Of a DNA stretch of 64,000 bases, positions 38,593 through 59,863 are shown piece after piece. Numbering within the stretch: the first letter of the stretch is position 1; every line of letters begins with the position of its first letter. Below the pieces are notes generated by a model. That model did no database searches. It worked only from the letters and a program-made list of their open reading frames with translations, and was not told the origin of the DNA. The DNA is from a virus (lineage: Duplodnaviria > Caudoviricetes). Location of the stretch: IMG/VR virus record IMGVR_UViG_3300030433_001574, positions 32,001-96,000 of that record; one strand, written 5' to 3'. A program made the translations under genes and the position numbers.

Positions 38593-39768
38593 TCACTTCA
38601 AGTCACGAATGCTTGCTTGTGCTCCAAAGAAAGTTGTCCAAATCTCACCCATTGTTCGGTAAAGTCCTTCTTGACCGAGGCGGTTGATTGCGAATGGGTC
38701 ACCAGTTTCGATACCTGACTCAAAGTATTGAGTAGGGATTGCTGTGCTGAAATACATGTAGTCAGTGTCCAAGAGATACATACGGCTTAGTCCGTCTGTC
38801 TTTACAACGTCCTTAGAAGGAATGATTGGGACACCGTTGTAGGTTGCGACAATGAAACCTGCTTCGATACCCGGAACACCCTTTACACCGTTGTAGGTAG
38901 GGGTGACACGCTTCTCTTCCATGAAACGCTGTTGCGCTTGGAGGAGTTGTTGTAGACGCATCAAAGTGTCATATCCAGTTAGGATGACCTTCGGGTTACC
39001 ACCACGTTCCCAAACTTGTTGGAATGTGGTGTCGAGGTGGTCGAGTGAAAGAACACGCTTGTTACCAGCAGTGGTATCAGCAGCGCAGTTTACTTCAGCA
39101 CTTGACCAAGTGTTGGTTCGTCGGTCAATACTGTAGATGTCAAGGTCACCGTCGTCAGCGTGGTTGTTACCTGATGTGGTTTTCAAGGTCGTTGCTGAAC
39201 CTGAACCGTCAGCGGCTTCAGCAGCGGTGATACGGTCAAGAGACTCAAAGTTGTTACCTGCTGTTGTAGAACAGTCAGTCAAGAGCATCTTGTTTACCAT
39301 CTCAGCGTGGTGCTTACCCATCTCTTCCTTGAGAACTGAGCGCATGTCACCAAGACCGTCATCCTTGTCAGCAAGGAAGACAGCGACTTCGCTTACATCG
39401 AATGAGTGAGCGATGGTCTTTGGCTTTGCAGCAACGTGCTGGAAGACTGGCTTAACAGTCTCAGGTAGTGTGCCGTTCTCAGCGATACCGCCGTGAACTG
39501 TGCCTGAGTTTGGCTTGTCAGTGATGACTCGCCATCCACTTCGCTCCCACGGCTTCTTTGGTAGAATCGAGAATGCGTTGAACTCTTGGTTGAGTTGTGA
39601 CCAAACCTTGCGACCATAGATTGCTTGGTATGTTCCAGCGGTGGTGCTTAGCATTGGTGAGTCGGCTTTGAGAAGTTCGCTACCAGTGTATGTGTAACCC
39701 ATTGAGTTACCTGCTCCGTAGTAGTATCGCTCCATATCTGTTACTGTCCTTACATAGTTTCGTGCCAT
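38593..39768 (-). CDS. Major capsid protein (HK97 fold)
   Basis: Follows the protease-scaffold; E-loop GGIAENG, spine helix EMGKHHAEMVNKML, P-domain YNGVPII; start may be 39777. Confidence 0.9.
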   Translation of the reverse strand: MARNYVRTVTDMERYYYGAGNSMGYTYTGSELLKADSPMLSTTAGTYQAIYGRKVWSQLNQEFNAFSILPKKPWERSGWRVITDKPNSGTVHGGIAENGTLPETVKPVFQHVAAKPKTIAHSFDVSEVAVFLADKDDGLGDMRSVLKEEMGKHHAEMVNKMLLTDCSTTAGNNFESLDRITAAEAADGSGSATTLKTTSGNNHADDGDLDIYSIDRRTNTWSSAEVNCAADTTAGNKRVLSLDHLDTTFQQVWERGGNPKVILTGYDTLMRLQQLLQAQQRFMEEKRVTPTYNGVKGVPGIEAGFIVATYNGVPIIPSKDVVKTDGLSRMYLLDTDYMYFSTAIPTQYFESGIETGDPFAINRLGQEGLYRTMGEIWTTFFGAQASIRDLK

Positions 39769-39807
39769 ATTGTTCATCTCCTTTTTTTGTTGTTATTGTA
39801 TGAGTCC

Positions 39808-40659
39808 TCACTCACTGCGGTATAGTCCTCCAGCAAGTTGGTGAACTTCGTCCCAACTCATGTTTGCCAAGTCTTGTGTGCTTGGCACTTCAATGGCTGG
39901 GGTGGCTGACTTAGCGATTGTTTCGCCAGCGCCACTGGAAAGGTTGTCGATTCGCTCATTAAGTGCTCCGAGAGCCTTCATGACTTCATCGAGAGGGCCA
40001 CGAGCGTCGAACTCTGCTGCTTGAGCCTTTGCGAGTTCAGCAGCGGATTCTTGAGCGTATCGGCCTTCAAAGTTTTGTTCAAGGGACTTGCGGAACTCTT
40101 CTTCTTGCTTTGCAGCCTTGAAGACTCCGTATGCCTCTTCGATTCGGTGAGCGTCGATGTCATGACCAGTAATGAAGTCAGACTTTTCGATGCTTCCACC
40201 ACCGCTTAGTCCAGCACGCTGGATAGCGTTGGTAGATGGGTTGCCTCCTTCTTGAGCACGACCCTTGACTTGTCCAGCAAAGTAATCAGCACCATCGCCA
40301 ATTGCTTCAGGGGTAGAACCGAGGTTTGCTTTTGCTACTGTGTCGAAGTGAGCACGAGCAGCGATTGTATCAACACCTGCGGATTTGAGAGTGTTTTCCA
40401 TCCAGTCGAGATATTCAGAAGTAATAACGTCAGAGAACTCAGACTTCATCTTGTCGTCTTTCTTCTCATCCTTCTTGTCGTCTTCTTTGTCTTCCATGTA
40501 GTTACCCTTTTCCTTGTCGTCTTTGTCCTCAGATTCTTCTTTCTTTTTCTTCTGAGCGTCTTTCAAGGCTTGAGGTAGTTCTCCTTTCTCCATAGAGTCC
40601 AGTCGTCCCTCAAGTCGGGTCAATACATCGTTCATTTGTTCCATTACATCGTCGGTCAT
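39808..40659 (-). CDS. Nested scaffold protein from an internal in-frame start
   Basis: AAGGTGAACAAA-ATG 40659 (MTDDVMEQ) sits exactly after the protease domain, as in lambda C/Nu3. Confidence 0.6.
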   Translation of the reverse strand: MTDDVMEQMNDVLTRLEGRLDSMEKGELPQALKDAQKKKKEESEDKDDKEKGNYMEDKEDDKKDEKKDDKMKSEFSDVITSEYLDWMENTLKSAGVDTIAARAHFDTVAKANLGSTPEAIGDGADYFAGQVKGRAQEGGNPSTNAIQRAGLSGGGSIEKSDFITGHDIDAHRIEEAYGVFKAAKQEEEFRKSLEQNFEGRYAQESAAELAKAQAAEFDARGPLDEVMKALGALNERIDNLSSGAGETIAKSATPAIEVPSTQDLANMSWDEVHQLAGGLYRSE

Positions 40660-41193
40660 TTTGTTCACCTTGTTTTTGTCTTCCTTTAGTATGTTGAATG
40701 TGGCTTCGGGGTTAATTCCTTTTTCGCATATTGTGATTTCGTGTAGTTCCAGTTTTGATATTTCTTGATATGAGCCGTGGGATTTGTCGCTTTTGTTTAC
40801 TCGCTTGAATGCTTGTCCTCCGATACTGAATCCTGTTAGGTTTCCTTTTCGGATTTCACTTGCTACTTCTCGTGCCTTCTCGATGTCGTTTCTTAATTTT
40901 ACCACAACAAACATTCCAGCATCGTCTACTTCGCTTTTCCACAACCTCCCTTGATTATCTGTATAATTTGAAATTACTTCTCCTACTTGTATATTTGAAT
41001 GTGCTAATTGGACGTTTCGATACTTTGGGTCTGACATGAATTTTTTGAAAGCGTCTTTCAATGCTGCCCTTGTAATTAAATCTCCTTGCTTGTCTACGAG
41101 TTCAACAGAGGCATACCCTGCCACAATGAGGTCATTGACCCCCTTGAGGAGTTCGATACCATTTCTCCGCTGACTTCGCAACACACTATCCAC
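39808..41193 (-). CDS. Prohead serine protease fused to scaffold
   Basis: GYASVELVDKQGD, catalytic H (LAHSN), GFSIGG (Ser), LHEITI...NPEA, then a charged coiled-coil scaffold. Confidence 0.9.
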   Translation of the reverse strand: MDSVLRSQRRNGIELLKGVNDLIVAGYASVELVDKQGDLITRAALKDAFKKFMSDPKYRNVQLAHSNIQVGEVISNYTDNQGRLWKSEVDDAGMFVVVKLRNDIEKAREVASEIRKGNLTGFSIGGQAFKRVNKSDKSHGSYQEISKLELHEITICEKGINPEATFNILKEDKNKVNKMTDDVMEQMNDVLTRLEGRLDSMEKGELPQALKDAQKKKKEESEDKDDKEKGNYMEDKEDDKKDEKKDDKMKSEFSDVITSEYLDWMENTLKSAGVDTIAARAHFDTVAKANLGSTPEAIGDGADYFAGQVKGRAQEGGNPSTNAIQRAGLSGGGSIEKSDFITGHDIDAHRIEEAYGVFKAAKQEEEFRKSLEQNFEGRYAQESAAELAKAQAAEFDARGPLDEVMKALGALNERIDNLSSGAGETIAKSATPAIEVPSTQDLANMSWDEVHQLAGGLYRSE

Positions 41194-41214
41194 TCCTGTG
41201 TTTGTTCACCTACA

Positions 41215-41222
41215 TAAATAAA
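41215..41222 (-). promoter_or_regulatory. TATA-like box for the protease-scaffold-MCP operon
   Basis: TTTATTTA 22-29 nt upstream of GTG 41193. Confidence 0.45.
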
Positions 41223-41228
41223 GCGGCA

Positions 41229-44200
41229 TCACTCTTCTTCATCCTCATCGTCCAAATCGCTGTGCTGCTTGCGTTTTTTTCGCTCTAAGCGTTTGTTACG
41301 CACATGCTCGTATTCTTCTTCCGAATCTTCTGTCGGGCGCTCAATCATGTCCCAGTCGGGAACACTTTCTTCACTGGTCAGGCTGGTTGGGCCTCGTGGT
41401 GATTCAACTGCATCACCTACGTCGATACCCAATCCTTGAGCCGCTACTCGACCTGACATCTTTTCTTTCTGTAGGTTGTCAATTCGTTCTGTCAAGTCAG
41501 CGATACGAGTAATTGTCTTGAGCATTGTTTTCATACTGGGCTTCATGATGTTCATTTCATCATCGGCATCAATGATACCAGCCGATTGTTTTTCGCTGTG
41601 CCTTCTGTCTTTTTCAGAATGCATGGAATGATAGGTCTTGTCAGGAATAATCTCTTCGACTACAGTATCGTCTTTCTTATCGACTCCTTTGAGCATCAAC
41701 GACACAGCCTGATTCCATAGCGGTCTAACGCTTTCGGCCAGTTGAAGCGTGTAGTCAGACTGGCTCAACTCACCCATAACAGAGTGTGGCGAGTGCGCCC
41801 AATTTCCAGTATGACTGGATTCTGCCTTGTAAACAACCTCGTCTAAGCCATCAAAAACAATGGATATTCTGTCATCTTTGAGAGTAATATCGTATGGAAC
41901 TGGGATAACTGGGTGAGATTTTGCCAGTAGAGATAGCGTCTCAAGACTTGCTGGACTCTCGGCATCAGCCTCTCCTACTATCTTTGAAGAGGTTACATCG
42001 TAGATTGTTTTCCCGTTTCGATTCCGCTTTTTAACACCCGATACAGATATGGAAACCGTGTCACCTTCTTTGAATGGCTTGGGGCTTTTGATAGTCCCAA
42101 CATCGAGATACTGCTTACCATCATAATCAACACCTCGATTACCAAAGCCTTCTGAGTCGAGTGGCCCTGCTCCTAAACGATAGGTGTATGGCCCTTTACC
42201 TCGTGCATCCAAGATAATGAAACTGACATTCTTGTTCTTACGAAGCAAGAACCACTTTGGATGTCTACGCTCTCCTCGCATGTAAGTTGAATTGCCATCA
42301 CGGAGCAGTAGTTGCTTGTGCTCTTCTTGTAAACTCTCTACTGTAGCCTGAAGTCCACCATCTTCTGTGATGCGAGTATCATAAGGGCCGGGAACTAAGA
42401 CGTTATCGTGACTGTCGAACTGACCCCTTAGAATTTTGAGTCGCTCTCTTACTGTCATATCTGACACATTTGTGTCATCGTAGTCAAGCAGGTCAATGAT
42501 GTGGATGTTGTCTTTCATTTGCACTGCGTCGATAATGTAGTTCTTCTCGGTCAGTTTCTTGAGACTCGCTTTGTTTTCTTCACTTATCGGCACTGCGTTA
42601 TTATCGCCGTCGTAAGCAGTAAAGCGATTCCCCTTTCGCATGATTATCATACGCTCACCATCGTAGAATGCTGAGACAACCCAATCACCGCTAAACCCTC
42701 GCAGTGCTTCAAAATCTTTGAGACTGAAGATACGATGCATTGGTAGAATAGGAGGAGGGCGAGCCTTGTCTTCTTTCAACAAAGCATCAGGGTTCATCAA
42801 CACCATCAGTGTTTCAGATGGGTCGCTTGTCGAGATATTCATAGCGTCAATGTTTGGAGGTAGACCAGTGATGTCAGGACGATTCATGTTGGTAGTAGCA
42901 ACAGGAACTTGATAGCCTGATGACAATACTTGTTGAACTGCGTCTTGACCATGAACAGCGGTCATCAACTCTTCAGGAATGCTGTGCAAATACTCAGGCT
43001 CTGTGTTTGTGCCTACCATGATGGTTTTGTTACCGGGGAACTCAGCACCAACAGATGGATGCAATTGTGCGTAACCGCTGTCCATTGTGCCTGACACAAA
43101 CATATCTTGGACACTAACGCCTCGACCACCCACAGCAGGGTGAATTGGGAACATACCAAAGTTTGCTTCTTGGATTTTTGTAGGAGGTGCTACTACCTTT
43201 TCCATCGTCTGTGCTTTCGTTGGGTCGAATACAAAGAGGTCGTGAACCTTGCTTTTGGCGTTGTTGATTGGTTGGTTCATATGCCCTTTTAGACTACCAA
43301 TAGCATTCATTTTCTTACCGTAGTCTCTTTCACGGTCTGTAAGTTGAACACGACTTAGACCATGTAAGTTGAGTTGATTTTGTTGGTTAGGTCTGAAGAG
43401 TGTCTCTAACTGTGTCAAACTTTTTCCATACTTATCTCGGAAAACACCAGCGAATTTTCTATCAGCCTTCATTCTACCAGTAGGGTCTTCTTTAGCCGAT
43501 GGTCGAGTTTGGATATGCTCTCTTAGAATAGACTCAATCGCTTCGTGATGGTCGTCGGTGGTAAACATGTCATTTGTTTCTTCACCAGTGAAACTAACAC
43601 CTGAGCCTAACAAATCACCATGTCGTAGAACTTTGACAGGTGCATCCATACCTTCAAGCAATCTTGTAATCATGTGATTGTGAGCATCATCGTTTGGTAA
43701 ATTAAGAAGAGAGCGAACCTTTTCAGGAGAGTGTGTAGGTAAAATCTCTTTACCAGCAGCACCCAAGACGCTTGCTATAGTGTGGTGAGGCGATACAACA
43801 TCTTCGCCTTGAGAAAGCAATTCACTGGCGCTTTTTTGCTCTCTCATGATTTCACCATAACCATGCGTCTCTAAGCCATGCGTCTCATGAGGTAATCGCA
43901 ACAAAGCAAGGTTAGCATCCTTGAATAAGCGAGAAGTATTTGCTATGAACTTGTCAGGGAACTCAGGGTTGAAAGCATCGGGGTCGGCCTTTTCATATTC
44001 AGGCTTTATTTTCTGAGCCATAGCCAAAATAGCATTTAGGTCGGCTTCGTCTTTTGCTTCTGAATGGTTTGCTAAATGCTCAAACTGATTAAGAAAATCA
44101 GGTTGAGCCTGTGCATGAATGTCATCAATTTCAGCCTCTATTTCATGCAGTCGTAGATTGGCTTGTGCGTATTCATCGCTACCCTGTTCCATACTTTCGA

Positions 44201-46733
44201 TGGCGATGCTAATATCATCATACTCATCATCCAATTCTTGAACAGCATCTCGTTGCGATTCAGTTAGCATTCCCTTTACGTCATCTTTCTTTTTCTTATG
44301 TCCTTGATGAATACGAAACAGTTCTTTGCTATTTTCATTATGACTCAGCCTCGCATCAGCAGGTAGATTGCTTCGACTAAGACGACGATGCTGCTTCATA
44401 GGCTCGTGTGGGGGATGAAGACGACCACCCATTGTTGCATTGCGATGAGATTTTACTGAGTTTGTATGCGATTGTGTAAGTTGCATACCCATACCACCTA
44501 TAGCGTTGATTGGATTTGAACTAAAGTGATTTTCTGAATCTTTGAGTGTATTTAGAGCAGCACCGTTGTAGTAAATCTCTCTTTCTTTATCGCTCATGTA
44601 ACGAATCGCATTCGCATATTCTCCGTTCAAAGAAGATGCTTGTCGAAAGGGCATGTTCTTGTTGTTTCTTGGTTTACGATGAATGTGATTTGAAGCATCC
44701 CATAGAGAAGCGATACCATGTCCTCCAATGTGCTCTCTTATGATTTTTGAATACAGAGAAGGAACGTATCGACCCCAAAGCCCTATTGTCTTTGCATTAG
44801 GAATAAACTCATTACCCTCAACTTTACCGATGACTGAAAAACCCTGAGCGTCTTTTGGTAAGGAGTCATGTATCATCTCCAAATAATGCACGACGTTTCT
44901 ACCCATACCACCTTGATGATGAAACTCATCAGCAAAGTGAGCACCAAGCCCAATGATGTTACCCATATCGTCTGTGAGGTAATGTTCTCTTTCATCTACT
45001 GGAATATCAGTGATGTCGTAACCGTTTGAGCCTCCATGATGAAACCAATCGTGATTACGAACTGGCTTCTGTTCTTTGTTCTCCTTAGCCAACTCTTGCG
45101 CTCTGTCTATGATTTGCTTGATTTTAGTCTGAGAAACAAGTGGCCCTTCATATCCAAGTAGTAGAGGGTGTGAGTCCATTTCAGTCATGTCTTCATTGTA
45201 ACCCATAAGAGCCAGCATTGTTTTTACATCTACAAAATTTTGCTCTTTTTCATCAAGCACCTTCAACTCCTGAAGAATACCTTCACCATGATGAAGTGGA
45301 TGTGCCTTTGCACCTTCGTGAATTTTTGCACCCTGTCGCATCGCTCTAACTGGTAGTTGGTTGATGAAATCTTCATCTTCATCGGGCGGTTTTTCAAACG
45401 CACCAACATCAAGAGCATCCTTGTGCTCAGTAAGAAGTTCATTGTATTCACTCAAAAGGTTGTCATAGACAGATATTGAAGACTCGTTATCGCTATCAAA
45501 AGGCGTATCTTGCATCGCCTGTATCAAGGATTGATTAAGGAATCTCTGTTCTCCGTTTGGAACGTCATCAATTGTTTCGTAGTGTCTCCTAACATTCGCA
45601 CCATGAATGTGCTGTGGTCGCATGTAGTGGTCAAACTCACCAGTAAATCGCTGAGCAAGGTTTCGTTTAATACGCCCAGCGCTGATGCTCATACCATTAC
45701 CTAAGTCGATGTTTTGAACATCGTGAGCATCTGTGCCTTTTTCGTGAATGTGGTCGATAACCTTCTGTCTTTCAAGCGGAGATAAAAATTCCAAACCGTA
45801 GAGATAGCCCTCATATCCCAGCGCTTCTCTAAGCGGTTTTGCTTCAAGGTCAGCCTCACTTGCGCCGCTGTAAAGATAGTCTTGAATCTCTTGTTCTGTC
45901 ATACCCTCCTTTGGGTCATACATCTCACTGTGATACTGGTCGCCTTCCCATCTGTCAGCAGCGTCTTCAAAGTGCATCAATTGTAGAGCGTGCTCGTGCT
46001 CAGCAGGTATGGGGTATTTGTCCATCATTTCATTGACGGCCGCTGGGTTTTCTCCTTTCCATCGTTCAAAGTCTCGGAGATAAAGGTCGTAGGCATAGTT
46101 GTCTTTCAAAGGCCCAAGATGATTGTAGTGCTTAACATCCTTACCTACTGCGTTGTCAAACTTTGTCTTACCAATTACCGACAAGTTGTTTTGCTTTTGC
46201 TCATAACTTTCTTTGCCTTTTTCGGCTTCTTTGTATCGTTCAGCCAAACTCTTACCACCCGGTTCAGATGGTAAGTAGAAGCGTCGTAACTTTTCTGTCA
46301 TTTTTGACCTACCAGTTATGGCGTGCTTCTGACGTAGAGGATGGTGGTTTTTGTGATGAGGATGCGACTCAGGATAATGTTGCCCTTGAGCGAACTCAGC
46401 ATGAGGGAACGAAGAAGCCAAATCAAACAAGGAGCGCTCTCTCATACGTCCTTGCCACGGATGGTTACCAATCCGCATCTCTGCGCCTCGTTCAAAACTA
46501 AACACACCCTTCTGTTTCTTATCGAATCGGTGTCGCTTTTTCTTGGCTTGCTTGAGCAACGAATCACAGATTTCATCCATAGGTGTCGCATCAATACGAA
46601 TGCCGTGATTTTCTAAATTCATCTTAGCAAAGTGAAAGTCTCCAACAGCGTTAGGAATGTCGATACCATCTATGATTGATTTGAGAAGTTCGTTACGACT
46701 TCTGTAATACCAATCAGATGGCGTTTCAATCAA
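41229..46733 (-). CDS. 1834-aa putative internal head protein with a degenerate ATP-dependent DNA ligase (NTase+OB) domain
   Basis: WVVSAFYDGER (motif I K to F), IIDAVQ, IIDLL, ERLKIL, KQLLLRD..STY..G.R...WFLLRK, then an OB-like region at about 41930-42760. Confidence 0.8.
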   Translation of the reverse strand: MIETPSDWYYRSRNELLKSIIDGIDIPNAVGDFHFAKMNLENHGIRIDATPMDEICDSLLKQAKKKRHRFDKKQKGVFSFERGAEMRIGNHPWQGRMRERSLFDLASSFPHAEFAQGQHYPESHPHHKNHHPLRQKHAITGRSKMTEKLRRFYLPSEPGGKSLAERYKEAEKGKESYEQKQNNLSVIGKTKFDNAVGKDVKHYNHLGPLKDNYAYDLYLRDFERWKGENPAAVNEMMDKYPIPAEHEHALQLMHFEDAADRWEGDQYHSEMYDPKEGMTEQEIQDYLYSGASEADLEAKPLREALGYEGYLYGLEFLSPLERQKVIDHIHEKGTDAHDVQNIDLGNGMSISAGRIKRNLAQRFTGEFDHYMRPQHIHGANVRRHYETIDDVPNGEQRFLNQSLIQAMQDTPFDSDNESSISVYDNLLSEYNELLTEHKDALDVGAFEKPPDEDEDFINQLPVRAMRQGAKIHEGAKAHPLHHGEGILQELKVLDEKEQNFVDVKTMLALMGYNEDMTEMDSHPLLLGYEGPLVSQTKIKQIIDRAQELAKENKEQKPVRNHDWFHHGGSNGYDITDIPVDEREHYLTDDMGNIIGLGAHFADEFHHQGGMGRNVVHYLEMIHDSLPKDAQGFSVIGKVEGNEFIPNAKTIGLWGRYVPSLYSKIIREHIGGHGIASLWDASNHIHRKPRNNKNMPFRQASSLNGEYANAIRYMSDKEREIYYNGAALNTLKDSENHFSSNPINAIGGMGMQLTQSHTNSVKSHRNATMGGRLHPPHEPMKQHRRLSRSNLPADARLSHNENSKELFRIHQGHKKKKDDVKGMLTESQRDAVQELDDEYDDISIAIESMEQGSDEYAQANLRLHEIEAEIDDIHAQAQPDFLNQFEHLANHSEAKDEADLNAILAMAQKIKPEYEKADPDAFNPEFPDKFIANTSRLFKDANLALLRLPHETHGLETHGYGEIMREQKSASELLSQGEDVVSPHHTIASVLGAAGKEILPTHSPEKVRSLLNLPNDDAHNHMITRLLEGMDAPVKVLRHGDLLGSGVSFTGEETNDMFTTDDHHEAIESILREHIQTRPSAKEDPTGRMKADRKFAGVFRDKYGKSLTQLETLFRPNQQNQLNLHGLSRVQLTDRERDYGKKMNAIGSLKGHMNQPINNAKSKVHDLFVFDPTKAQTMEKVVAPPTKIQEANFGMFPIHPAVGGRGVSVQDMFVSGTMDSGYAQLHPSVGAEFPGNKTIMVGTNTEPEYLHSIPEELMTAVHGQDAVQQVLSSGYQVPVATTNMNRPDITGLPPNIDAMNISTSDPSETLMVLMNPDALLKEDKARPPPILPMHRIFSLKDFEALRGFSGDWVVSAFYDGERMIIMRKGNRFTAYDGDNNAVPISEENKASLKKLTEKNYIIDAVQMKDNIHIIDLLDYDDTNVSDMTVRERLKILRGQFDSHDNVLVPGPYDTRITEDGGLQATVESLQEEHKQLLLRDGNSTYMRGERRHPKWFLLRKNKNVSFIILDARGKGPYTYRLGAGPLDSEGFGNRGVDYDGKQYLDVGTIKSPKPFKEGDTVSISVSGVKKRNRNGKTIYDVTSSKIVGEADAESPASLETLSLLAKSHPVIPVPYDITLKDDRISIVFDGLDEVVYKAESSHTGNWAHSPHSVMGELSQSDYTLQLAESVRPLWNQAVSLMLKGVDKKDDTVVEEIIPDKTYHSMHSEKDRRHSEKQSAGIIDADDEMNIMKPSMKTMLKTITRIADLTERIDNLQKEKMSGRVAAQGLGIDVGDAVESPRGPTSLTSEESVPDWDMIERPTEDSEEEYEHVRNKRLERKKRKQHSDLDDEDEEE

Positions 46734-46745
46734 TCAAAGACCCCC

Positions 46746-47567
46746 TCAATAGGGGCTGTTGCTGAGAACCCCGTTGTTGTCAAGACGGCTTACTCCGCCA
46801 CCTTCGTGTGGGTTCAACATAGAGGCCAACTTGTCAAGACTGACTTGCACTGATGTAGCGCCTTTGTTGGCAACGTCTTCAGCGTTGTATGGATATTGAT
46901 TAGTTGTGTAGTAGGCGTTTCTTGTTTGACCACCAGTTTCAGACATAAACATGACACCCATTGGGGAAGAGTCATACGATGTAGCAAAGCCGGGTTGAGA
47001 ACCTTCGGCAACTGCTTTTTCGACTGTCACTCTTGGGCTTTTATCACTCAAAGGCATTTGCTCGTTGCTTCGGAAGCCGGGTCGCTTGACTGCGACACCA
47101 CGCCTTTCACCACGCTTTTGCTGTCGAGGTGGGCCTTCGTTCATTCTGAAATCACTTTCACCAGTATCTTCTCGCATAGGCATTTCAGCCATTGGAGACA
47201 TGTCAGGGTTATCAGGGAAACTTCGTGGTTGTCGTGGTTCGGGGGCTTCACCCATGTTTCTCTTTTGTGCGTCAGCGATTGTGAATGTGTTGGCTTTCAT
47301 TTTGTCGTCTTTGTCAGCCTTTGATTTCATATCTTTTGCACCCTTACCATCAGCGGCAAATTTAGGAACTTTCTTACCATCATGTTCAACCATTTCAAGA
47401 CCCTTTTCCATAGCGTTGCAACCAGTCTTACAACTTCCCATTTTGGTCATTTTACCGCACTCATCGCATTTTGCTTTTTCAAGTGTATCAATACGCTCAG
47501 AAAGATACTGGGCTTTGTTCATCAGGTCAAGTGCTTGTCTACTCATTGGGGATGGTATTGGCTTCAT
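46746..47567 (-). CDS. Putative internal head protein (K/M/D-rich, disordered)
   Basis: Between portal and protease; repeated LEKA, MEKG, MKS, VEKA motifs. Confidence 0.55.
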   Translation of the reverse strand: MKPIPSPMSRQALDLMNKAQYLSERIDTLEKAKCDECGKMTKMGSCKTGCNAMEKGLEMVEHDGKKVPKFAADGKGAKDMKSKADKDDKMKANTFTIADAQKRNMGEAPEPRQPRSFPDNPDMSPMAEMPMREDTGESDFRMNEGPPRQQKRGERRGVAVKRPGFRSNEQMPLSDKSPRVTVEKAVAEGSQPGFATSYDSSPMGVMFMSETGGQTRNAYYTTNQYPYNAEDVANKGATSVQVSLDKLASMLNPHEGGGVSRLDNNGVLSNSPY

Positions 47568-47911
47568 TGTGTCACCTCTGTTGATTTTGCTTGTTCGGCC
47601 ATTTCATGAATTTCCTCCCAAGACATTAAGTGAATTTCGTTGTTTGTGTATTCGTTCTGACTCTTCAATAAAGCAGAATCATCAGACGTTCCTACACCGA
47701 TGTCTCCTCTAAATGCGTCAGTGGAAACATCTTGGCTTAGCGGTGTCATAGTGGCTACAAACCCTGCTTTTCTTAGCATTGAAATAGGGTCACTCAAAGC
47801 CTGTTTGAGTTGTATGTTTTCTGTTTTCAAAACCTGAAGGTCGCTGTCCATGTTTTCCATTTTTGTAATCAGAGCATTCATCAAACGCTCAGCAGTGGAT
47901 TCTTCGGACAT
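47564..47911 (-). CDS. Scaffold-like coiled-coil protein
   Basis: N-terminal heptads, LLKS, and C-terminal MSWEEIHEMA matching the scaffold's MSWDEVHQLA. Confidence 0.6.
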   Translation of the reverse strand: MSEESTAERLMNALITKMENMDSDLQVLKTENIQLKQALSDPISMLRKAGFVATMTPLSQDVSTDAFRGDIGVGTSDDSALLKSQNEYTNNEIHLMSWEEIHEMAEQAKSTEVTQ

Positions 47912-47921
47912 TTAATCACCT

Positions 47922-51310: not shown

Positions 51311-51334
51311 AATTTGACCTCACTATTGACCTAT

Positions 51335-53075: not shown

Positions 53076-54544
53076 CCTCTACTCGGTTTTCCAGTAATAA
53101 TGTTGTCAAGACCCGGCAAGATGTCATCGAGGAGGACAATCGAGCCTTTGAACTCTTTTGTTCCCCAGTTTGCCAACGCCAGCGACATAGCCAAGTCATC
53201 ATGCACGCCCACGCTTTCCAGTCTCCCGTTCTTTTGCATTCCAAACCTGTTCAATTCCTCTTCTAACTTGTGAGTAAACTGCCTACTTATTTCATTACCA
53301 TAAGGTGTTTTGATTTGGCCCTGTTCAAAAGCCATGAGCAAAGACATGAAGAGGCTTTCCTTTCTTGTCTTGGTTGTCATGAAGGTTCGGATAGGAATAT
53401 CTTCTCGCATATCCTTGAGTTCCATAGCAAACATACGCTGGAAGTTGTTGCCTTCAAGTTCAATCAAGTCGGGTTGGAATCGTTGATTCAATAGAATGAT
53501 TTGTCGCTTCTGTGCTACAGAACTCATACCACGCTCATGCACAACGCCGACAATCTGTTTGACGTTATCATCAGGTAGAGTTCGTAGAACAGTCATAGCA
53601 GTAAAGTCAGCATTCTTGTCCGATGCAATCGCTGTGTCCCAGCCAATGAAATGCTGACCGAACAGACCCATGCTGTTGCCATCTTCATCATACTCGTGTT
53701 CAGCATGGTCAAGGAGAACCAACTCAGGGTCACGAGCCTTTTCCAATATCGTCATCGGGAACATACTGGCTACGTCATGGATTGGTTCACAGAGATACTC
53801 ACGAGTAAACTGAATCGCTGGCATTGAAAGTCGTCGCTGGTCAAGTGCTTCAAGACTCCAACGCTGAGGCCACAGCGGTTCACCCTCTCGATTGATAGCG
53901 GGATATGTCTCAACTCGGAACGTCTCTTTCTTTTCCAACTCAGCATACAAGTCATTGTAACTGAACGGAGTTCCTACCATCATCAGTCTACCTGTGTGGT
54001 GGAGAACTGGGAGCAATACACCATAGAACCAGTCGGCTGCTCGTTGCAACTCACTACCCGTTGTTCCCCACAGAATGTCATCACATACGACGACATCAGG
54101 GTGGAAACCACGAGTTCCTCCGCCAACCGACTTTGCCATGATACGGCTACCGTTGGTGAACTCAAAATAGGTCTTTCGCCACGGTATACCACCGGGCTTA
54201 AGATGGTGCAAACAAGGTGCTCCGTCGATGTTGTTACGAATGAAACGCATGTGCTCCAGTGTCTGTTCCAATGAGTGACTGAACACCATGATGTGTGTGT
54301 TGGGTCGGAACGCCGCTATCCACAGAGCATACGACATGAAGAATACAGACTTACCGTGGTCACGAGACGCTTTGACACAGTAGTAACGATTCTCTTCCAA
54401 GCCCTCATCCCACTGAGCGTGGTGGTCAGCGTAGTCAAAACCCAACACTGTTTCAAAAAAATACTTGAAAGAGCGCTGAGACATTTTTCTGTCCATCTCA
54501 ACGATGAGTTCTTTCATTTGCTCTTCTTCTTCTCGCTTACCCAT
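53060..54544 (-). CDS. terL: Terminase large subunit
   Basis: Walker A ASRDHGKS, Walker B VVVCDD, VGTP, nuclease IGWD.A and HDDLAMSLALA. Confidence 0.95.
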   Translation of the reverse strand: MGKREEEEQMKELIVEMDRKMSQRSFKYFFETVLGFDYADHHAQWDEGLEENRYYCVKASRDHGKSVFFMSYALWIAAFRPNTHIMVFSHSLEQTLEHMRFIRNNIDGAPCLHHLKPGGIPWRKTYFEFTNGSRIMAKSVGGGTRGFHPDVVVCDDILWGTTGSELQRAADWFYGVLLPVLHHTGRLMMVGTPFSYNDLYAELEKKETFRVETYPAINREGEPLWPQRWSLEALDQRRLSMPAIQFTREYLCEPIHDVASMFPMTILEKARDPELVLLDHAEHEYDEDGNSMGLFGQHFIGWDTAIASDKNADFTAMTVLRTLPDDNVKQIVGVVHERGMSSVAQKRQIILLNQRFQPDLIELEGNNFQRMFAMELKDMREDIPIRTFMTTKTRKESLFMSLLMAFEQGQIKTPYGNEISRQFTHKLEEELNRFGMQKNGRLESVGVHDDLAMSLALANWGTKEFKGSIVLLDDILPGLDNIITGKPSRGWMIP

Positions 54545-55665
54545 CAGACCACCCCAACGAGCATTTTTCTTTTGTCATCTTTGTTTGTCATAGATGCCGA
54601 TGACATTGATGCGTTTGCTGCCTTTTCTTGTGCTTTTTGTGCTTGTTCAAGACTTTGTTGAATTGTATTACCAGCACCACTGTCTAACTCTTCTTCTTCA
54701 GTTTTACCAGTTGTGTTAGCAGCAATTGTTTCACCTATCTGTTCAGGAGACATTTCAGGAGTTGGCGAAGCAACAGCAACAGGTGCGGCAGGGGTTTGCT
54801 CCACACCATCTTCACCTATTACTCTGAATCTGCCGTCTCCTCTCATTGGACTGAGAGGCATTTGAAGTGGATTATCCGTAACACCAATCAAGTTCGTTGC
54901 ATCTTGTTGTGTTTGTTGAAGTCGAGACTCAGCATCAGCCCCATAATGACCTAATGCTTGAGCAGCATCTGATGGATTGTATGTGTCTCTCAAAGCCCTG
55001 TTTCGTGCTTCTTCACTGTCAATAGGAACTAAATTACCATCTAAACCTTCGACCATCACTGGTTGTCGTGTAGGAGGAGCAACTTGAGGAGTAGGCTCAG
55101 CAACTTGAGGTTGAGTTACACCGACTTTGTTTGCGGCACGTCTTGCTGCTCGCTCTCCAGCACGACCACTTGTTTGTTGAACTTGTTGTGATGTTGCTTG
55201 ATATTGTCCAGCAGCCCCTAAGCCACCACTAAATGCATCTTGACCAGCAGCACCAGCATTCGCAAGACCAATTACCCCTGCTAAAAAGCCGAGTGCATTC
55301 GCATCAGCGTCTCTTTTACGATGTGCTGCTTCTCCAGCCCGACCAGCCGTTTCAAACACTTTTTGCTGAGCCAAAGCAGTCCTGTTACCCTCTTCTGTAT
55401 TCGGGGCATTATCCAAGTCCATTCGCTGGTTCATACCAGTAGTCCCATAAATATCGGCTAATCTACGACTTCCAGCATCATCTAATTTTGGTGCTTGATA
55501 TTGAAAATTACCCGATGCATCGGGTGGTGTTTGAGTCATTTGCGACATTTGACTTTGACCGGGAAGATAAGGAACTTCACCAGTCGGGTCTAAATTATAC
55601 ATTATCTCCGGGCCTCTTGAAGAGATGACATTCATAATGCTCTTACGAACTAAAACGTCGCCCAT
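54544..55665 (-). CDS. Q/A/G-rich hypothetical protein (possible ejection protein)
   Basis: N-terminal VLVRKS shared with the neighbouring gene; hydrophobic ALGFLAGVIGLA segment. Confidence 0.6.
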   Translation of the reverse strand: MGDVLVRKSIMNVISSRGPEIMYNLDPTGEVPYLPGQSQMSQMTQTPPDASGNFQYQAPKLDDAGSRRLADIYGTTGMNQRMDLDNAPNTEEGNRTALAQQKVFETAGRAGEAAHRKRDADANALGFLAGVIGLANAGAAGQDAFSGGLGAAGQYQATSQQVQQTSGRAGERAARRAANKVGVTQPQVAEPTPQVAPPTRQPVMVEGLDGNLVPIDSEEARNRALRDTYNPSDAAQALGHYGADAESRLQQTQQDATNLIGVTDNPLQMPLSPMRGDGRFRVIGEDGVEQTPAAPVAVASPTPEMSPEQIGETIAANTTGKTEEEELDSGAGNTIQQSLEQAQKAQEKAANASMSSASMTNKDDKRKMLVGVV

Positions 55666-57998
55666 CAGACACCACCTACGCTTACTTTGACAACCTTGAC
55701 AACATCAGTAGAAACATTGAGTCGCTTTGCAATTCGCTCCCAATCACCAGTGGCATGTGCTATTGAACGAACATCAACGGGCGTGAGGTCTACGCTCTTA
55801 GCAAGATAGTGCATACCACGACGGTCACTAACATTGATTGGTCGAGTCAATGCGTGCTTCATGATTTTGCTGTCGTTGCGAGCATCGTCCAACTGCATAT
55901 CTTCCATAGCCTTCATGACTCTATCCATCGGAGAGAGTTCAGTCGGTTGAGACTTCATGTATTGAGTGAGCAAGCGTTGGCGTGGGTCGCCCATGAGTTG
56001 TTGGTAACGCTGCTCTTGAGGTGAAAGTTGCATACCCTGTCCTTGAGGCACTCTTGCGCCAGCGGCTTCTATGATTCTACGAAGCGATGCTGGGTCAGCC
56101 TGTCCGACACGGCTTCGTGCCGCTGCCATTTCAGCACTTTGCGGTGTGAAACCGGGTGCTCCCCGTTGAGGGACAGACGGAGGTAGCGTCGTCTGCTGAG
56201 GTGCTGGGGGAGCAACAGCAACCTCAGTGGGAGTAGGTTGTGGACGTGGAGCAGGTCGCTCAGTTGATGCAGTCGCAGCGGGTCTTGTAACCGATGCTCT
56301 TTCAACTGGGGCGAGTGCTACGTCGTGGTGATACGGAACGTGCTCAGGTAGGTTTTCAATAAGTTGTTCAGGATATTGCATGTAGCGAGAAGACAAACCA
56401 GTGGTCGGAAGCGACTCAGGCAACTGGCGACGGGTCTGATGACCAAACGCTTCGCTAAGTAAATCAGCCAAAGCCTGAGTTCCTTGTCTACGTTGCTCGA
56501 CAGTATCATAACTTTGGAGATTCAAACCCATGTCTTGAATGATAGCAGCGTCGATGTTACCTTCAGCATCTCTTGGCATGTAGGCTCGTAACTCGCTGTC
56601 GTGCTCATCATGTGCTCCACTTAGCATGGCCTTAGCATAAAATTTAGCAGCGTTTTCGTGAGTCCCCAAACCTCGTGTTGGTCTATGTCCATCGAGCGTT
56701 TCCAAATGAGGGCCGGGAACAGCATGGCTTCGCATGTTGTCAAATCCAACCTCGTGGTCTTTTCCAAAGACTTCAAGGATGTGTTGAAACGCTCGCTTGC
56801 CCGGTCCGGGTCTTGCTTTTGACCCACTAATGATACGACCAAACAACATGTTGAAGGCTGGGGTTCGTGATAATTCGTTAATCATGTTTTCAGTGCTGGC
56901 TGGACTTCGCAACACGGTTCTTAGGTTCATCATTGTATATTGAGGAGAGCCAGTTGTGCCGGGAGTTGTGTTAATCGGCACATCAACGTCAGGAATTTTA
57001 TCAGGGTCAATGACCTTTAGCGCTTCAGCGATGTGAACTTTTGCGCTGTCGATTGAGTTTTTTGGCCCTGTCTGTTGGCGACCAGCCATCATATGCATAA
57101 AATCAGGGGTGTGATTCATAACTTCCCAAGACTGGATTCCAGTGTGGGCCGCATTATGGGAAACACCGGGAGGAGCGTTGGTGATGTGTGTGCCGGGTAG
57201 CATAAACCCTTGAGGCGTTTGGATGATAGCGTCACCACCTCGGCCACGAATACGACTACCACGAGGGTGCAAATCTTTGATGTCAATGTGAGGATTGTCA
57301 AGGAACTCAGCACCAACCAAGTCTTTGATACCAAGTGTTTCAAGTAGAATCTTCTGTAGATTGTGATTGTAAGGAACGGCGTAGGACTCAATCATAGCAC
57401 CAATTTTTTCGTTACGATTTGCACGATTGGTATAAGCAGTGATGTATTCTCCACTTTGAGCACGATGAGGTCGTGATGTTGGTTTTCGACCACCATATGG
57501 TGCTACTACGATTTTACGATGCTGCATGTCATCAACATCGGGAATATGGTGAAAACCGCTTTTGTCATCATGTTCAAGATTTGTCATCTCAATGGCACGC
57601 TGAACAATGTTTCGACCAGTAAGTTGTCCCAACTCAGGATGGTCTTGACCAAGCAAACCGTTTTTCTCAAGAGCCTCACCAATAGCGTGTATCACACCGT
57701 CAATTCCGTGATGATGTGATTCTCCATTATGGTCAAGGTAAACCATTTCATCGTGTTTACCTTTAACGAATTTACCGGGAATCAATTCACCCATACCAAA
57801 GTGTCCTGATGGGTGTGGCTTTGCCGCACCGTAGTGAGCGTAGACAGGAACGTCAGGCGTGTTTGGGTCAGGGTGTATTGCTTCAGGAGGTGGAGAAGTT
57901 TTCAGATACGGAGTAAGTCGCCCCGTCTCAGGATGAGGATAGTAACCGTAAACACCGTCACCTTTGAGAAGAAGTGATTTACGAACTAAGACATTCAA
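55665..57998 (-). CDS. His/Pro-rich hypothetical protein with a C-terminal HTH-like region
   Basis: TTG start overlapping the upstream stop; VLVRKS-LLLKG N-terminus; WERIAKRLNVS. Confidence 0.65.
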   Translation of the reverse strand: MNVLVRKSLLLKGDGVYGYYPHPETGRLTPYLKTSPPPEAIHPDPNTPDVPVYAHYGAAKPHPSGHFGMGELIPGKFVKGKHDEMVYLDHNGESHHHGIDGVIHAIGEALEKNGLLGQDHPELGQLTGRNIVQRAIEMTNLEHDDKSGFHHIPDVDDMQHRKIVVAPYGGRKPTSRPHRAQSGEYITAYTNRANRNEKIGAMIESYAVPYNHNLQKILLETLGIKDLVGAEFLDNPHIDIKDLHPRGSRIRGRGGDAIIQTPQGFMLPGTHITNAPPGVSHNAAHTGIQSWEVMNHTPDFMHMMAGRQQTGPKNSIDSAKVHIAEALKVIDPDKIPDVDVPINTTPGTTGSPQYTMMNLRTVLRSPASTENMINELSRTPAFNMLFGRIISGSKARPGPGKRAFQHILEVFGKDHEVGFDNMRSHAVPGPHLETLDGHRPTRGLGTHENAAKFYAKAMLSGAHDEHDSELRAYMPRDAEGNIDAAIIQDMGLNLQSYDTVEQRRQGTQALADLLSEAFGHQTRRQLPESLPTTGLSSRYMQYPEQLIENLPEHVPYHHDVALAPVERASVTRPAATASTERPAPRPQPTPTEVAVAPPAPQQTTLPPSVPQRGAPGFTPQSAEMAAARSRVGQADPASLRRIIEAAGARVPQGQGMQLSPQEQRYQQLMGDPRQRLLTQYMKSQPTELSPMDRVMKAMEDMQLDDARNDSKIMKHALTRPINVSDRRGMHYLAKSVDLTPVDVRSIAHATGDWERIAKRLNVSTDVVKVVKVSVGGV

Positions 57999-59863
57999 AC
58001 TCGCCCACTCCCTCTACCAACAAGAGCGCCGGGGTCAAGCCCGAAGTCTCGTGGTTCATTGTTTACATCTTCCGTAGCGCCTTCGTTTCGATTTGTTTGC
58101 TTTGGACTGTTGGCTGGATAATTTGGTAGTGTGCTCGCTGCACCAGCGGTGTCAGGTTCACCCTTACCCTTCTTTTTGCTGTCCTTGTCTTTCTTTTCAC
58201 GCATCAGTTCACGAATCTCTTTGAGAGCAATTCGCATCAATGCTGCTTGATATGCATTGGCTTTGAGAATGTCACTGTGTTGAGGAATGTCCTCACTCAT
58301 TGTAATCATACTCGGCATCTTAGGTCGTGCTAAGTGTGGTCGCTTGAGTTGCGGTGGCACAATGCTTGGCGCACGAACTGGTCGAAGTCGTGGTCTTGGG
58401 ACACGAGGGTATTGGAGTGTGTTGGTCAAGCGACCACCACCCGTATCACCAGCGATATACGAGCGTTGGCTGTGACGCATGTGTGGTGTGTATACTGTTC
58501 TTACACCGCCCAAGAGTTTACGAGCATCTTGTGAAGCGAGATAGGGTCTGTATTGTTGAGGGTCTTTTGATGGAGGTTGCTTGCTGGCAAGACCTCGGTG
58601 AGAGAACTCAACAGAAAGATGTGGCCTCATTAGCCCAGTTTTACGCCCCAGTGGTAGGTTACGACTGATGTTCTTGGAACGTCTTGACGTGATGTTTCGT
58701 GGGTCGCCTCCACCTTTTGGCTTCTCAAACTGACCAGTAGATGGTCGCCATTTAGCGTAGCCTTCTTTCTTGCGTCGTCGCTTTACGGAGCGCTTTGACT
58801 CTTTTTTTTTAATCGTGTCCGATTTGAGCAATTGCCAAGCGATGTCCATAGGCTCGCTCGCATATTTCATTTGAAAATTATGTTCACTTTGAGGTGTGGG
58901 TGTGAAAGGAGGTGCAAGTTGCTCGATAAATCCCACACCTTTAGGATAGGGGAATGCATCAAAAACAGATTCGTTATCAGGCATTATGTTGCGTAAATCT
59001 TTTGTTGCATTATTTTCAAACTCGACAGCATCTTTTATGTTGTCAAGGGTTAATCCTTGAGCAAAACGAGCCATAGCCTCACGCTCTCCTCCAAATTCGC
59101 TTCTTGCGTCTTTATAGGAATTGATGTAGTTTTGAGCCGCCTCCGCACCAGCATTTTCCAAAATATACTGATACACCTCATTTGGGTCTAATGGTTCTCC
59201 AAAGTATGTCGAATGGTCATGGTTAGAAACCTCATCATGAGTATCTGCTACTCTTTCACCAAACATCTCCTCAAGCATATATGCGGGAGGGTGATTCATA
59301 CGATAGTATTCAGCCAATCTATCCATAGCCCTTTTTCTTTCTTCATTTTTAAGTTCAGGATTATCGCCAGCAAATCTTGCTCGGTCTATCTCATAATCTG
59401 TCATTTCTGACATATCACGCTTTAGCAAATTACTCCAAGCATTATCCATAGGCTCAGACATCTGAACCATCTGACCGCCAGCAGCACCCGGCCCTTTTGC
59501 TCCCATAGCAAGACTGGTAAGGAAACCACCAGCACCTGATGGCATTGTTTGATTTGCTGGATTATCAGTAGAACCACGAGGCTTGAACTTCTCCTCTTCC
59601 TCTTCTACTGGCTCATCAGGTTTTTCGCCATCAATACCAAGATGATGTCTACGGACTTTGATGTGACGGATTTTGTTGTCCTCTTTCTCTTCTCGTTCAC
59701 GCTTGGCTTGCTTCTTGTCCTTGCGCTTTTCCTTGTCTTTGGCATCTTCGACACCGCTGGGTGGACGCTCATCTTCATGATTCGCCCTGAACATCTCGGA
59801 GGATTCTGAGCGAGGATTATACATCCTCGTGTCAGAGGTTCGACCCATCATCCCCTCCGTCAT
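57995..59863 (-). CDS. Basic/low-complexity protein with a duplicated SEPMDxAWx(1-2)LLK motif
   Basis: SEPMDNAWSNLLKR and SEPMDIAWQLLKS; K/R-rich tracts. Confidence 0.7.
   Translation of the reverse strand: MTEGMMGRTSDTRMYNPRSESSEMFRANHEDERPPSGVEDAKDKEKRKDKKQAKREREEKEDNKIRHIKVRRHHLGIDGEKPDEPVEEEEEKFKPRGSTDNPANQTMPSGAGGFLTSLAMGAKGPGAAGGQMVQMSEPMDNAWSNLLKRDMSEMTDYEIDRARFAGDNPELKNEERKRAMDRLAEYYRMNHPPAYMLEEMFGERVADTHDEVSNHDHSTYFGEPLDPNEVYQYILENAGAEAAQNYINSYKDARSEFGGEREAMARFAQGLTLDNIKDAVEFENNATKDLRNIMPDNESVFDAFPYPKGVGFIEQLAPPFTPTPQSEHNFQMKYASEPMDIAWQLLKSDTIKKKESKRSVKRRRKKEGYAKWRPSTGQFEKPKGGGDPRNITSRRSKNISRNLPLGRKTGLMRPHLSVEFSHRGLASKQPPSKDPQQYRPYLASQDARKLLGGVRTVYTPHMRHSQRSYIAGDTGGGRLTNTLQYPRVPRPRLRPVRAPSIVPPQLKRPHLARPKMPSMITMSEDIPQHSDILKANAYQAALMRIALKEIRELMREKKDKDSKKKGKGEPDTAGAASTLPNYPANSPKQTNRNEGATEDVNNEPRDFGLDPGALVGRGSGRV

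Follow-up and report, generated by a model that had tools for sequence, protein, structure and literature searches.

We analyzed a 64,000-nucleotide (nt) stretch of viral DNA (hereafter, the window) comprising bases 32001 to 96000 of the 107,203-bp IMG/VR record IMGVR_UViG_3300030433_001574, with emphasis on its head module, a minus-strand gene array that encodes the major capsid protein (MCP) and a prohead protease. The best overall reading of our data, to which we assign a probability of roughly 55%, is that a Lys-cutting HK97-type protease operates together with a head-loading tag resembling the capsid-targeting sequence (CTS) of phage T4. More specifically, the S78 (HK97 gp4-type) serine protease would cut after Lys, with a hydrophobic residue preferred at P3 and often at P2 as well (LLK in this lineage) and a small P1' residue in structural substrates. 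It would remove the 37-residue leader of the MCP, free itself from its own 17-residue leader and (at K170) from the scaffold to which it is fused, chop that scaffold at about eight conserved K↓S/A/G sites (arrows mark predicted cuts), and detach the C-terminal capsid-binding tails of the scaffold and of a 115-aa scaffold-like protein. Such a site would also end the short N-terminal leaders of the 1834-, 777-, 373-, and 273-aa proteins and of a second 115-aa protein. A portable amphipathic tag ending in LLK would, by analogy with the T4 CTS, co-assemble cargo with the scaffold core, which itself contains a tag-like segment, and would then be clipped, so that the mature proteins stay in the head.

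Magroviruses infect marine group II archaea and are highly abundant archaeal viruses in the surface ocean, and function is lacking for most of their genes. We assign the source virus on sequence grounds to the magrovirus-like archaeal tailed viruses because its MCP, portal, and protease are akin to those of the HVTV-1 type, its genome is ~100 kb, and a ligase-like gene lies in its structural module, a feature included in the description of magroviruses (Philosof et al. 2017, PMC5434244). In tblastn comparisons, the MCP was 33 to 35% identical to those of the haloarchaeal viruses HVTV-1 (34%), HCTV-1, and HCTV-5, and the portal and protease also matched HVTV-1-type haloviruses. Close relatives were marine IMG/VR contigs; a second magrovirus group, with MCPs 60 to 65% identical, was reached via records G002 and G005.

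The prohead protease, its scaffold, and the major capsid protein

The protease matched Pfam Peptidase_S78 (PF04586) with 41.2 bits against a cutoff of 21 over aa 23 to 177, as well as the head maturation protease families phrog_23555 and phrog_80; the only Pfam protease matches were to S78 and the related S78_2 (PF14550). Two residues, H65 and S123, were invariant across 31 aligned proteases with identities down to 20%, and, judged by the family, presumably constitute the catalytic pair. Both borders of the protease domain carry a candidate cleavage site. The leader in front of it ended in LLK[GAS] in 80 of 80 homologues, with the remainder of the leader varying, and a hydrophobic-x-K site followed by a small residue lay five or six residues ahead of the domain: ELLK↓G in the window, DF[IL]LK↓[AS] (including DFILK↓S and DFLLK↓S) in the second magrovirus group, and PVFK↓S in HVTV-1, where the leader spans ~170 residues versus 17 in the window. 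The site at the end of the domain was likewise kept, reading NILK↓E in the window, VLK↓G and ELAK↓S in the divergent loci L100 and L105, and VVSK↓AD in HVTV-1. Taken together, hydrophobic-hydrophobic-Lys ahead of a small residue flanks the domain on either side in the window, L100, L105, HVTV-1, and the second magrovirus group.

Within the scaffold part, we identified about eight hydrophobic-x-K↓S/A/G sites (aa 203, 271, 288, 337, 359, 389, 406, and 428), the Lys residues of which were 98 to 100% conserved versus 61 to 86% for their flanks, K288 being invariant in the aligned set. The site at aa 359 ends a segment, RIEEAYGVFK, that is one of three matches genome-wide to h-[DE]-x-A-[WYF]-x-h-h-K (h, hydrophobic); scaffold homologues retain it as LE.AY.VFK. 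The last site, IAK↓S, precedes the C-terminal MSWDEVHQLAGG by 18 residues, and this tail was kept in 57 homologues. Divergent scaffolds (L100, L104, and L105) follow the same plan, with K↓S, 12 to 20 residues, and then [ST]-W/F-x-[DE]-[IVL]-H/A-x-[LM]-A. A comparable tail closes the 115-aa scaffold-like protein, a coiled coil in which K83 was 100% conserved versus 48% in its flanks; by BLASTP, its tail and that of the scaffold shared 10 of 10 positives (E value, 0.003). The pattern W-[DE]-x-[IV] near a C-terminus matched four proteins, all within 41 residues of the end, of which we retained this pair. We set aside the match in the 777-aa protein, which lies within a helix-turn-helix-like segment (DWERIAKRLNVS), and that in the 1834-aa protein (PDWDMIERPTED), which is conserved and not clearly the same motif.

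Capsid-binding C-terminal tails are found on the scaffolds of phages P22 and 80alpha, and SaPI1 CpmB copies the C-terminus of the 80alpha scaffold. By analogy, the scaffold C-tail is likely the capsid-binding end, and the placement of K↓S just before it fits a protease that frees scaffold-type proteins from such a tail. From the conservation of these sites, we consider it probable that the protease and scaffold process themselves at the conserved Lys positions.

The MCP belongs to phrog_24667 (5.8e-59) and to Pfam SU10_MCP. A PDB sequence search with it returned no match. Its AlphaFold2 (AF2) model, with a predicted local distance difference test score (pLDDT) of 82, superimposed on the capsid protein of cyanophage A-1(L) (VIA Z, 21.2; root mean square deviation [rmsd], 3.8; 290 aligned) and on HK97 gp5 (1ohg; VIA Z, 16.7; rmsd, 3.9; 254 aligned), and by this model the MCP is an HK97-fold capsid protein. 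SELLK[AS]D was present in 77 of 77 close homologues. We also examined 121 full-length divergent MCPs (32 to 56% identity), namely 120 representatives from a search of 1.8 billion cluster representatives plus HVTV-1. The column of K37 held K in 94 and R in 14 of them (basic, 89%), P3 was L/I/F/V/M in 79%, P2 was free, P1' was mostly A, S, or T, and P2' was Asp in 79%; HVTV-1 reads GGMSK↓ADNLL at the aligned place. The site is preceded by a linker variable in length and sequence, and followed by a well-conserved start of the N-arm.

Consistently, the model comprises a helix at residues 12 to 20 and disorder at residues 23 to 35, and becomes confident from about residue 40. In the structural comparisons, MCP residue 52 paired with HK97 gp5 residue 118 and residue 53 with T5 pb8 residue 177, which places A38 at the equivalent of HK97 S104 by offset arithmetic from the fold alignment, the N-arm itself not being aligned. 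HK97 gp5 is cut during maturation between K103 and S104, within an unstructured stretch (PMC10275583). Based on this indirect evidence, cleavage of the MCP at K37↓A38 appears highly probable. The sites in the MCP, at the protease borders, and in the scaffold are best explained by a prohead protease that cuts after Lys in a hydrophobic context, as proposed in the first-pass annotation of the window, given their deep conservation, the equivalence to HK97 K103↓S104, and the invariant His and Ser.

Leaders and a 12-residue tag ending in LLK

The first-pass annotation had gone further, proposing that hydrophobic-x-K followed by S/A/G/E recurs in nearly every head-module gene, and that unannotated genes of the module encode packaged precursors cut after Lys into separate domains, some of them delivered into the archaeal host. 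The peptides it quoted were located where it had placed them, i.e., at aa 37 of the MCP (ELLK↓AD), aa 17 and 170 of the protease (ELLK↓G and NILK↓E), aa 18 of the 1834-aa protein (ELLK↓S), aa 12 of the 777-aa protein (LLLK↓G), and aa 83 of the 115-aa scaffold-like protein (LLK↓S), as were LLK↓R and LLK↓S of the 622-aa protein. The motif itself is too loose to carry much information. Using shuffling within each protein as background, we counted 43 occurrences of [LIMV]xK[SAG] against 20.8 expected (z, 5.0) in 14 head-module proteins; 12 of the 43 came from the protease-scaffold open reading frame (ORF) alone (2.2 expected; z, 7). The four large unannotated proteins (1834, 777, 622, and 373 aa) held 12 against 9.5 expected (z, 0.8), and the other 28 proteins of the window held 41 against 29.3, a 1.4-fold excess that is above the ratio of the four large proteins. 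Lys was followed by S/A/G in 20%, 14%, and 28% of cases in the 1834-, 622-, and 777-aa proteins, respectively, no different from the genome background of 22%. The tripeptide LLK (9 observed, 2.5 expected) ranked eighth among all tripeptides, which was not significant after correction. Enrichment thus holds for the protease-scaffold protein and was rejected for the big proteins, in which counts were at background. Since the loose motif is at background there, most of the listed internal sites (LLAK↓S, MLK↓G, YMK↓S, VMK↓A, LAK↓S, and ILK↓A) are attributable to chance, and the dicing of the 1834-, 777-, and 622-aa proteins at many sites finds no support. What survives of the idea that unannotated genes encode processed head precursors is that several of them bear leaders or internal tags ending in LLK. 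Conservation in relatives also held up, with leader sites kept in 38 to 80 related IMG/VR loci and in the second magrovirus group.

The MCP, the protease, the 1834-, 777-, 373-, and 273-aa proteins, and one 115-aa protein each begin with a short leader that ends in hydrophobic-hydrophobic-Lys. Of the 32 genes in the head-plus-tag block, which reaches from the MCP to the genome's right end, 8 had LLK among their first 40 residues, versus 1 of 83 genes elsewhere (Fisher, 1.3e-4; 0.48 expected from the internal rate), whereas the internal density of [LIV][LIVF]K was equal inside and outside the block (2.8 versus 2.7 per 1000 aa). The single gene outside the block, which encodes a 475-aa protein (9506-10933) and directly follows a giant ORF, starts MMGLLK↓D, which may reflect coincidence or mark an additional substrate.

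The leader of the 1834-aa protein ended in LLK[SA] in 37 of the 38 homologues that have an N-terminus, with diverging flanks, and a homologous large protein occupies the same slot in other lineages. This protein showed a weak Pfam DNA_ligase_A_M match (aa 1401-1494; ATP-dependent ligase-like). Its nucleotidyltransferase domain (aa ~1340-1500) is without the motif I lysine, reading SAFYDGER versus KxDG in ligases. As the lysine was absent in 50 of 50 aligned homologues (SAFYDG, SAYPEG, and SMLPEG), its loss is a family trait rather than a recent mutation. A conserved PDALLK site lies just ahead of the ligase-like domain.

In the 777-aa protein, the leader was conserved as [IL][IL][LR]K↓GDGVY in 11 of 13 homologues, with counterparts RFLIIK↓GEGV and YLIRK↓GHGV in the second magrovirus group. 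Its C-terminus (aa ~735-777; DWERIAKRLNVSTDVVK) is helix-turn-helix-like and nearly invariant in 13 homologues. A protein of the head or packaging machinery that binds DNA and is encoded directly ahead of the terminase might act as a small-terminase-like factor. A link between its GVYGYYPH and GIYGYYPF of HVTV-1 gp114 was dropped for want of BLAST support. Counterparts of the 373-aa leader in the second group read MNDLILK↓A and MSDDLVLR↓A. The signature M-x-(x)-V-L-(V)-R-[KS]-[SQ] occurs in three copies genome-wide, at residues 3-4 of the protease, 373-aa, and 777-aa proteins, and may end in a K↓S site.

Likewise, the second 115-aa protein starts MDL.K↓M[NDH]PMARK in 28 homologues; its second-group counterparts have longer leaders ending in IITK↓MDPMARR (16 residues rather than 5) and IIAK↓MDPMARR, placed before the same Met. 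The N-terminal segment of the 273-aa protein is a weaker candidate, conserved in 32 homologues and resembling the tag by eye only. Further leaders in the second group read TPEGSLLK↓D, and FDVLLLK↓A followed by EAFDLVWDDLEK↓G. We found no such leader on TerL, the portal, the HNH protein, the HMGL-like enzyme, or the 300-aa protein.

The tag comprises 12 residues, M-T/S-A-F-D-x-A-W-x-L-L-K, and its internal form is P-M-D-x-A-W-x-L-L-K. Just beyond the upstream edge of the window, six genes of locus L106 (window-equivalent 65-73.7 kb) begin with M-[ST]-[AD]-(x)-F-x-x-A-[WFY]-x-[LI]-[LI]-K. Internal copies are found twice in the 622-aa protein, once in the 1834-aa protein, and in three further genes, for a genome total of six N-terminal and at least six internal copies. 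In homologues of the 622-aa protein, a module of variable length is inserted right after the LLK of the first copy, and the second, conserved as PM[DN].A[WY].LLK, is also followed by a variable insertion. Similarly, homologues of the 1834-aa protein carry a variable-length insertion immediately after the [LIV][LIV]K of the internal copy.

A search of IMG/VR with a back-translated DNA pattern for M-[ST]-A-F-x-x-A-W-x-L-L-K gave 105 matches in 87 stretches, every one at an ORF start. Tagged ORFs occurred in tandem arrays of up to five (L179), and the 93 cargos of at least 45 residues fell into 54 clusters without mutual BLAST relation. Near-complete genomes contained five to eight strict copies each, with no matches to a reversed control pattern, and at least 12 to 15 copies were recognized by eye in two related genomes; all copies in near-complete genomes lay on the MCP strand, ~30 kb upstream of the MCP. 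Of five tag contigs tested, one is a fragment, and the other four code for an MCP of this family that likewise reads DLLK↓AD; every sampled tag-bearing lineage has LLK at the MCP site. The tag ends in the same three residues as P3 to P1 of the predicted MCP, protease, and 1834-aa sites, the specificity of the protease itself being inferred. Tagged ORFs have a Shine-Dalgarno-like G-rich run at positions -12 to -8. Across 84 distinct copies, synonymous positions varied freely (GCA/GCC/GCT/GCG, TTT/TTC, six Leu codons, and AAA/AAG) with the residues fixed, and therefore selection acts on the tag peptide.

The residue following the tag was A in 35% and M in 21% of cases, followed by E, S, N, and Q, so that the S/A/G/E rule proposed for P1' does not extend to the tag. 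Where the sequence continues LLK↓MP, the tag resembles an addition ahead of a complete protein. One cargo family, starting LLK↓MPYHGT (L179:3240-3716, L154:209-835, and six relatives on IMG/VR contigs), was modeled by AF2. In the model, the tag forms a discrete helix (aa 3-11) at the N-terminus, followed by a domain whose best PDB matches all had the ADP-ribosyltransferase fold (Tpt1/KptA, Rhs ART toxins, and DarT), with modest scores (Foldseek E value, 7e-4; TM, 0.42). Pfam searches of ten tagged cargos yielded only a sub-threshold PARP match, and a related-locus search with a tagged 799-aa protein found none. Two adjacent genes beyond the window (L106:1829-2143 and L106:2140-2454; genome 97829-98454) encode a tagged 104-aa DUF6321 protein (7.5e-18) and an untagged DUF5872 neighbor (3.4e-11), the sole tag-block proteins with any Pfam family.

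Gene order of the head module

The positions of the genes and elements described above are compiled in Table 1. The HMGL-like gene between the terminase and portal (51335-52189; HMG-CoA lyase family; Pfam, 2.4e-31) also adjoins tag genes in the second magrovirus group (41 to 44% identity; G002 and G005). In HVTV-1 (L081; KC117377, 60084-93232), very large proteins of 1048 aa and 1313 aa (the latter annotated as zeta toxin) are encoded between the portal and protease, and large accessory head proteins seem to occupy this position throughout the wider family. The giant ORF in the tail region (10930-28860, minus strand) is a single open frame of 5976 aa without a leader and without an excess of the motif.

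Table 1. Genes and sequence elements of the head module, in window coordinates; all lie on the minus strand, and arrows mark predicted cuts
Feature	Position	Residues	Remarks
Head module	59863 down to 38593		622-, 777-, and 373-aa proteins, of no assigned function, come first
622-aa internal tag copy 1	59420..59455	aa 137-148	EPMDNAWSNLLK↓R
622-aa internal tag copy 2	58823..58855	aa 337-347	EPMDIAWQLLK↓S
777-aa protein	55665-57998
777-aa leader	57963..57998	aa 1-12	MNVLVRK↓SLLLK↓G; sites end at aa 7 and 12
373-aa protein	54544-55665
373-aa leader	55642..55665	aa 1-8	MGDVLVRK↓S
TerL	53060-54544
300-aa protein, HMGL-like enzyme, HNH-containing 410-aa protein	between TerL and portal
Portal	48315-50081
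Two 115-aa proteins, 273-aa protein, 1834-aa protein	between portal and protease
Second 115-aa protein, leader	48255..48269	aa 1-5	MDLIK↓M
115-aa scaffold-like protein	47564..47911		Coiled coil; ALLK↓S (aa 83); C-tail MSWEEIHEMA
273-aa protein N-terminus	47514..47567	aa 1-18	Ends A[LF]DLMNK↓A; weaker, tag-like leader candidate
1834-aa protein	41229..46733		Candidate processed head protein
1834-aa leader	46680..46733	aa 1-18	Ends NELLK↓S
1834-aa internal tag copy	46551..46583	aa 51-61	PMDEICDSLLK↓Q
S78 prohead protease fused to scaffold	39808..41193	461 aa
Protease leader	41143..41193	aa 1-17	Ends ELLK↓G; five residues ahead of protease domain
Protease domain	40684..41142	aa 18-170	Ends NILK↓E
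Scaffold part	39811..40683	aa 171-461
Scaffold tag-like element	40117..40146	aa 350-359	RIEEAYGVFK↓A
Scaffold C-terminal tail	39811..39909		After IAK↓S; carries MSWDEVHQLAGG
MCP	38593..39777	394 aa	HK97 fold
MCP leader	39667..39777	aa 1-37	Ends ELLK↓AD; predicted propeptide, cut K37↓A38

Competing explanations, precedents, and meaning

Leaders and internal tags on several unannotated head-module proteins fit processed, capsid-targeted proteins, and we give even odds, by analogy with T4, to the proposal that proteins bearing a leader or the tag are taken up into the head and then clipped. A more far-reaching version is held only tentatively: the portable tag would mimic the scaffold segment and load dozens of unrelated proteins, the S78 protease would clip off the tag after LLK, and the cargo, a fast-turning-over set including ADP-ribosyltransferase-fold enzymes and multi-module "polyproteins" (the 622- and 1834-aa proteins among them), would enter the archaeal host. 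Ejection of any cargo into the host, proposed like packaging by analogy with T4, P1, and phiKZ-type phages, is less probable than loading and clipping.

Several observations weigh against loading and clipping. P1' is heterogeneous after the tag, with M, E, N, and Q common, versus A/S/G at the MCP and scaffold sites. The tag block lies 25 to 30 kb upstream of the MCP, with regulators and a GTPase cluster intervening, and because this block is the very start of a long co-directional array, the tag genes could belong to the early rather than the late set. All that the tag has in common with the leaders of the MCP, protease, and 1834-aa protein is LLK, i.e., three residues of information, and our leader statistics were framed post hoc, after the data had been seen. 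In addition, no tags were detected in the short stretches examined of divergent lineages with IAK, TAK, LTK, or MSK (L100, L103, L105, and HVTV-1).

Much of this would be expected if only plain HK97-style maturation took place, in which the MCP, protease, and scaffold are trimmed after Lys and the other leaders and the tag end in LLK by coincidence. The tag and leaders would then represent an amphipathic helix with a host or viral binding partner, a localization or turnover signal, or a feature of early proteins, and the internal sites would be due to chance, in line with the background frequency of the loose motif in the big proteins, the brevity of LLK, the dissimilar P1', and the position of the tag block at the genome end, far from the MCP and beside regulators. 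This explanation, which we regard as unlikely and yet as the most serious competitor, does not readily accommodate the internal tag copies in head-module proteins themselves (622 and 1834 aa), the tag-like scaffold segment that ends in a conserved K↓A, or the confinement of N-terminal LLK enrichment to the head-plus-tag block. Moreover, the variable-length leaders before the conserved Met of the small 115-aa protein look removable, and all tag genes lie on the late-gene strand.

Alternatively, the tag and leaders might target proteins to the procapsid without being cleaved, the Lys being a residue of the binding helix, in the manner of the signals at the N-terminus of P1 DarB or at the C-terminus of the HK97 protease. 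For DarB, the first 30 residues direct targeting, and removal of that signal is not reported (PMC9024508); a heterogeneous P1' is also easier to accept if the protease does not read it. We consider uncleaved targeting quite improbable, because the Lys ending the tag is invariant, although R or other residues should be acceptable in a helix, a Met-Pro resembling a native start often comes directly after the tag, internal copies sit exactly at module borders with insertions or deletions after the K, and the tag has the same ending as the MCP maturation site. An element acting at the nucleotide level, for instance a cassette for translation start or recombination, is suggested by several copies that are near-identical in DNA within one genome, but is largely refuted and scarcely credible given the free synonymous positions, the separate Shine-Dalgarno-like run, and the in-frame internal copies.

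Among the known systems close to a clipped head-loading tag is that of T4, in which the prohead protease cuts after Glu (L/I-x-E) and Alt is a packaged ADP-ribosyltransferase. The T4 CTS of IPI-III and Alt is removed by the prohead protease gp21 (PMC3012670; Mullaney and Black 1996, as cited in PMC9024508). In both cases, a short N-terminal peptide is common to otherwise unrelated, fast-evolving proteins of one virus; in the magrovirus, its last residues match the predicted cut sites of the head protease in capsid and scaffold, and one cargo family has an ADP-ribosyltransferase-like fold. In contrast, the predicted magrovirus system has an archaeal host, an S78 rather than a gp21-family protease, a putative cut after Lys (LLK↓), and an unrelated tag sequence with copies also inside multi-module proteins. 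The tag would thus work like a CTS system without being a member of the T4 one. Giant phages of the phiKZ/SPN3US type, which are jumbo phages of bacteria, use a T4-type protease whose motif ends in Glu. Their prohead protease acts on many head and ejection proteins (PMC7411985, PMC10052503), as the first-pass annotation proposed for the magrovirus with one short motif, but their sites were mapped by mass spectrometry, whereas those of the magrovirus are predicted.

With HK97 (gp4/gp5 maturation, PMC10275583; Duda et al. 2013, as cited in PMC9024508), the magrovirus shares the protease family, the capsid fold, and, by prediction, a Lys-then-small-residue cut in an unstructured stretch just before the N-arm. 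HK97 differs in that its scaffold is the delta domain of the capsid protein and that it has no known set of tagged cargo; in the magrovirus, protease and scaffold form one fusion protein, the leader of the MCP measures just 37 residues, and many other proteins have matching leaders. P1 DarB (~250 kDa) is likewise a very large protein that an N-terminal signal loads into an HK97-fold head, with a head protease trimming a partner (PMC9024508), and the 1834-aa protein is similar in scale and head-module position, without sequence relation; the P1 signal, however, is on one protein rather than being a portable tag on dozens. Magroviruses (PMC5434244) and the HVTV-1 group (Druskaviridae, PMC8651126) share features with the present virus, namely an MCP ~33 to 34% identical to those of haloviruses, a genome of ~100 kb, a ligase-like gene in the structural module, and relatives in marine metagenomes. 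We found no description of leaders, tags, or cleavage sites in the papers examined on magroviruses and the HVTV-1 group, and a literature search for a CTS in archaeal viruses or magroviruses found none.

The protease and capsid protein are ordinary members of known families, a Lys cut before the N-arm is the HK97 pattern, and a portable cargo tag is known from T4; what looks new is the archaeal virus, an S78 protease with Lys at P1, and an unrelated tag that also occurs inside multi-module proteins. The predicted mature MCP N-terminus (A38) and the cut-after-Lys specificity would be useful for annotating and modeling this capsid family. If the reading of a clipped head-loading tag is true, one short code would give a capsid location and a processing step to a large share of magrovirus orphan genes and would single out the proteins that are the earliest to act in the infected archaeon. 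It would also mean that the T4-type strategy to tag, load, and clip emerged, or has been kept, in archaeal viruses with a protease of the HK97 type. As the tag is short and portable, this is readily testable by reporter fusion. On the more far-reaching version, archaeal viruses would gain their first system of internal or ejected proteins, and S78 proteases their first CTS-like code.

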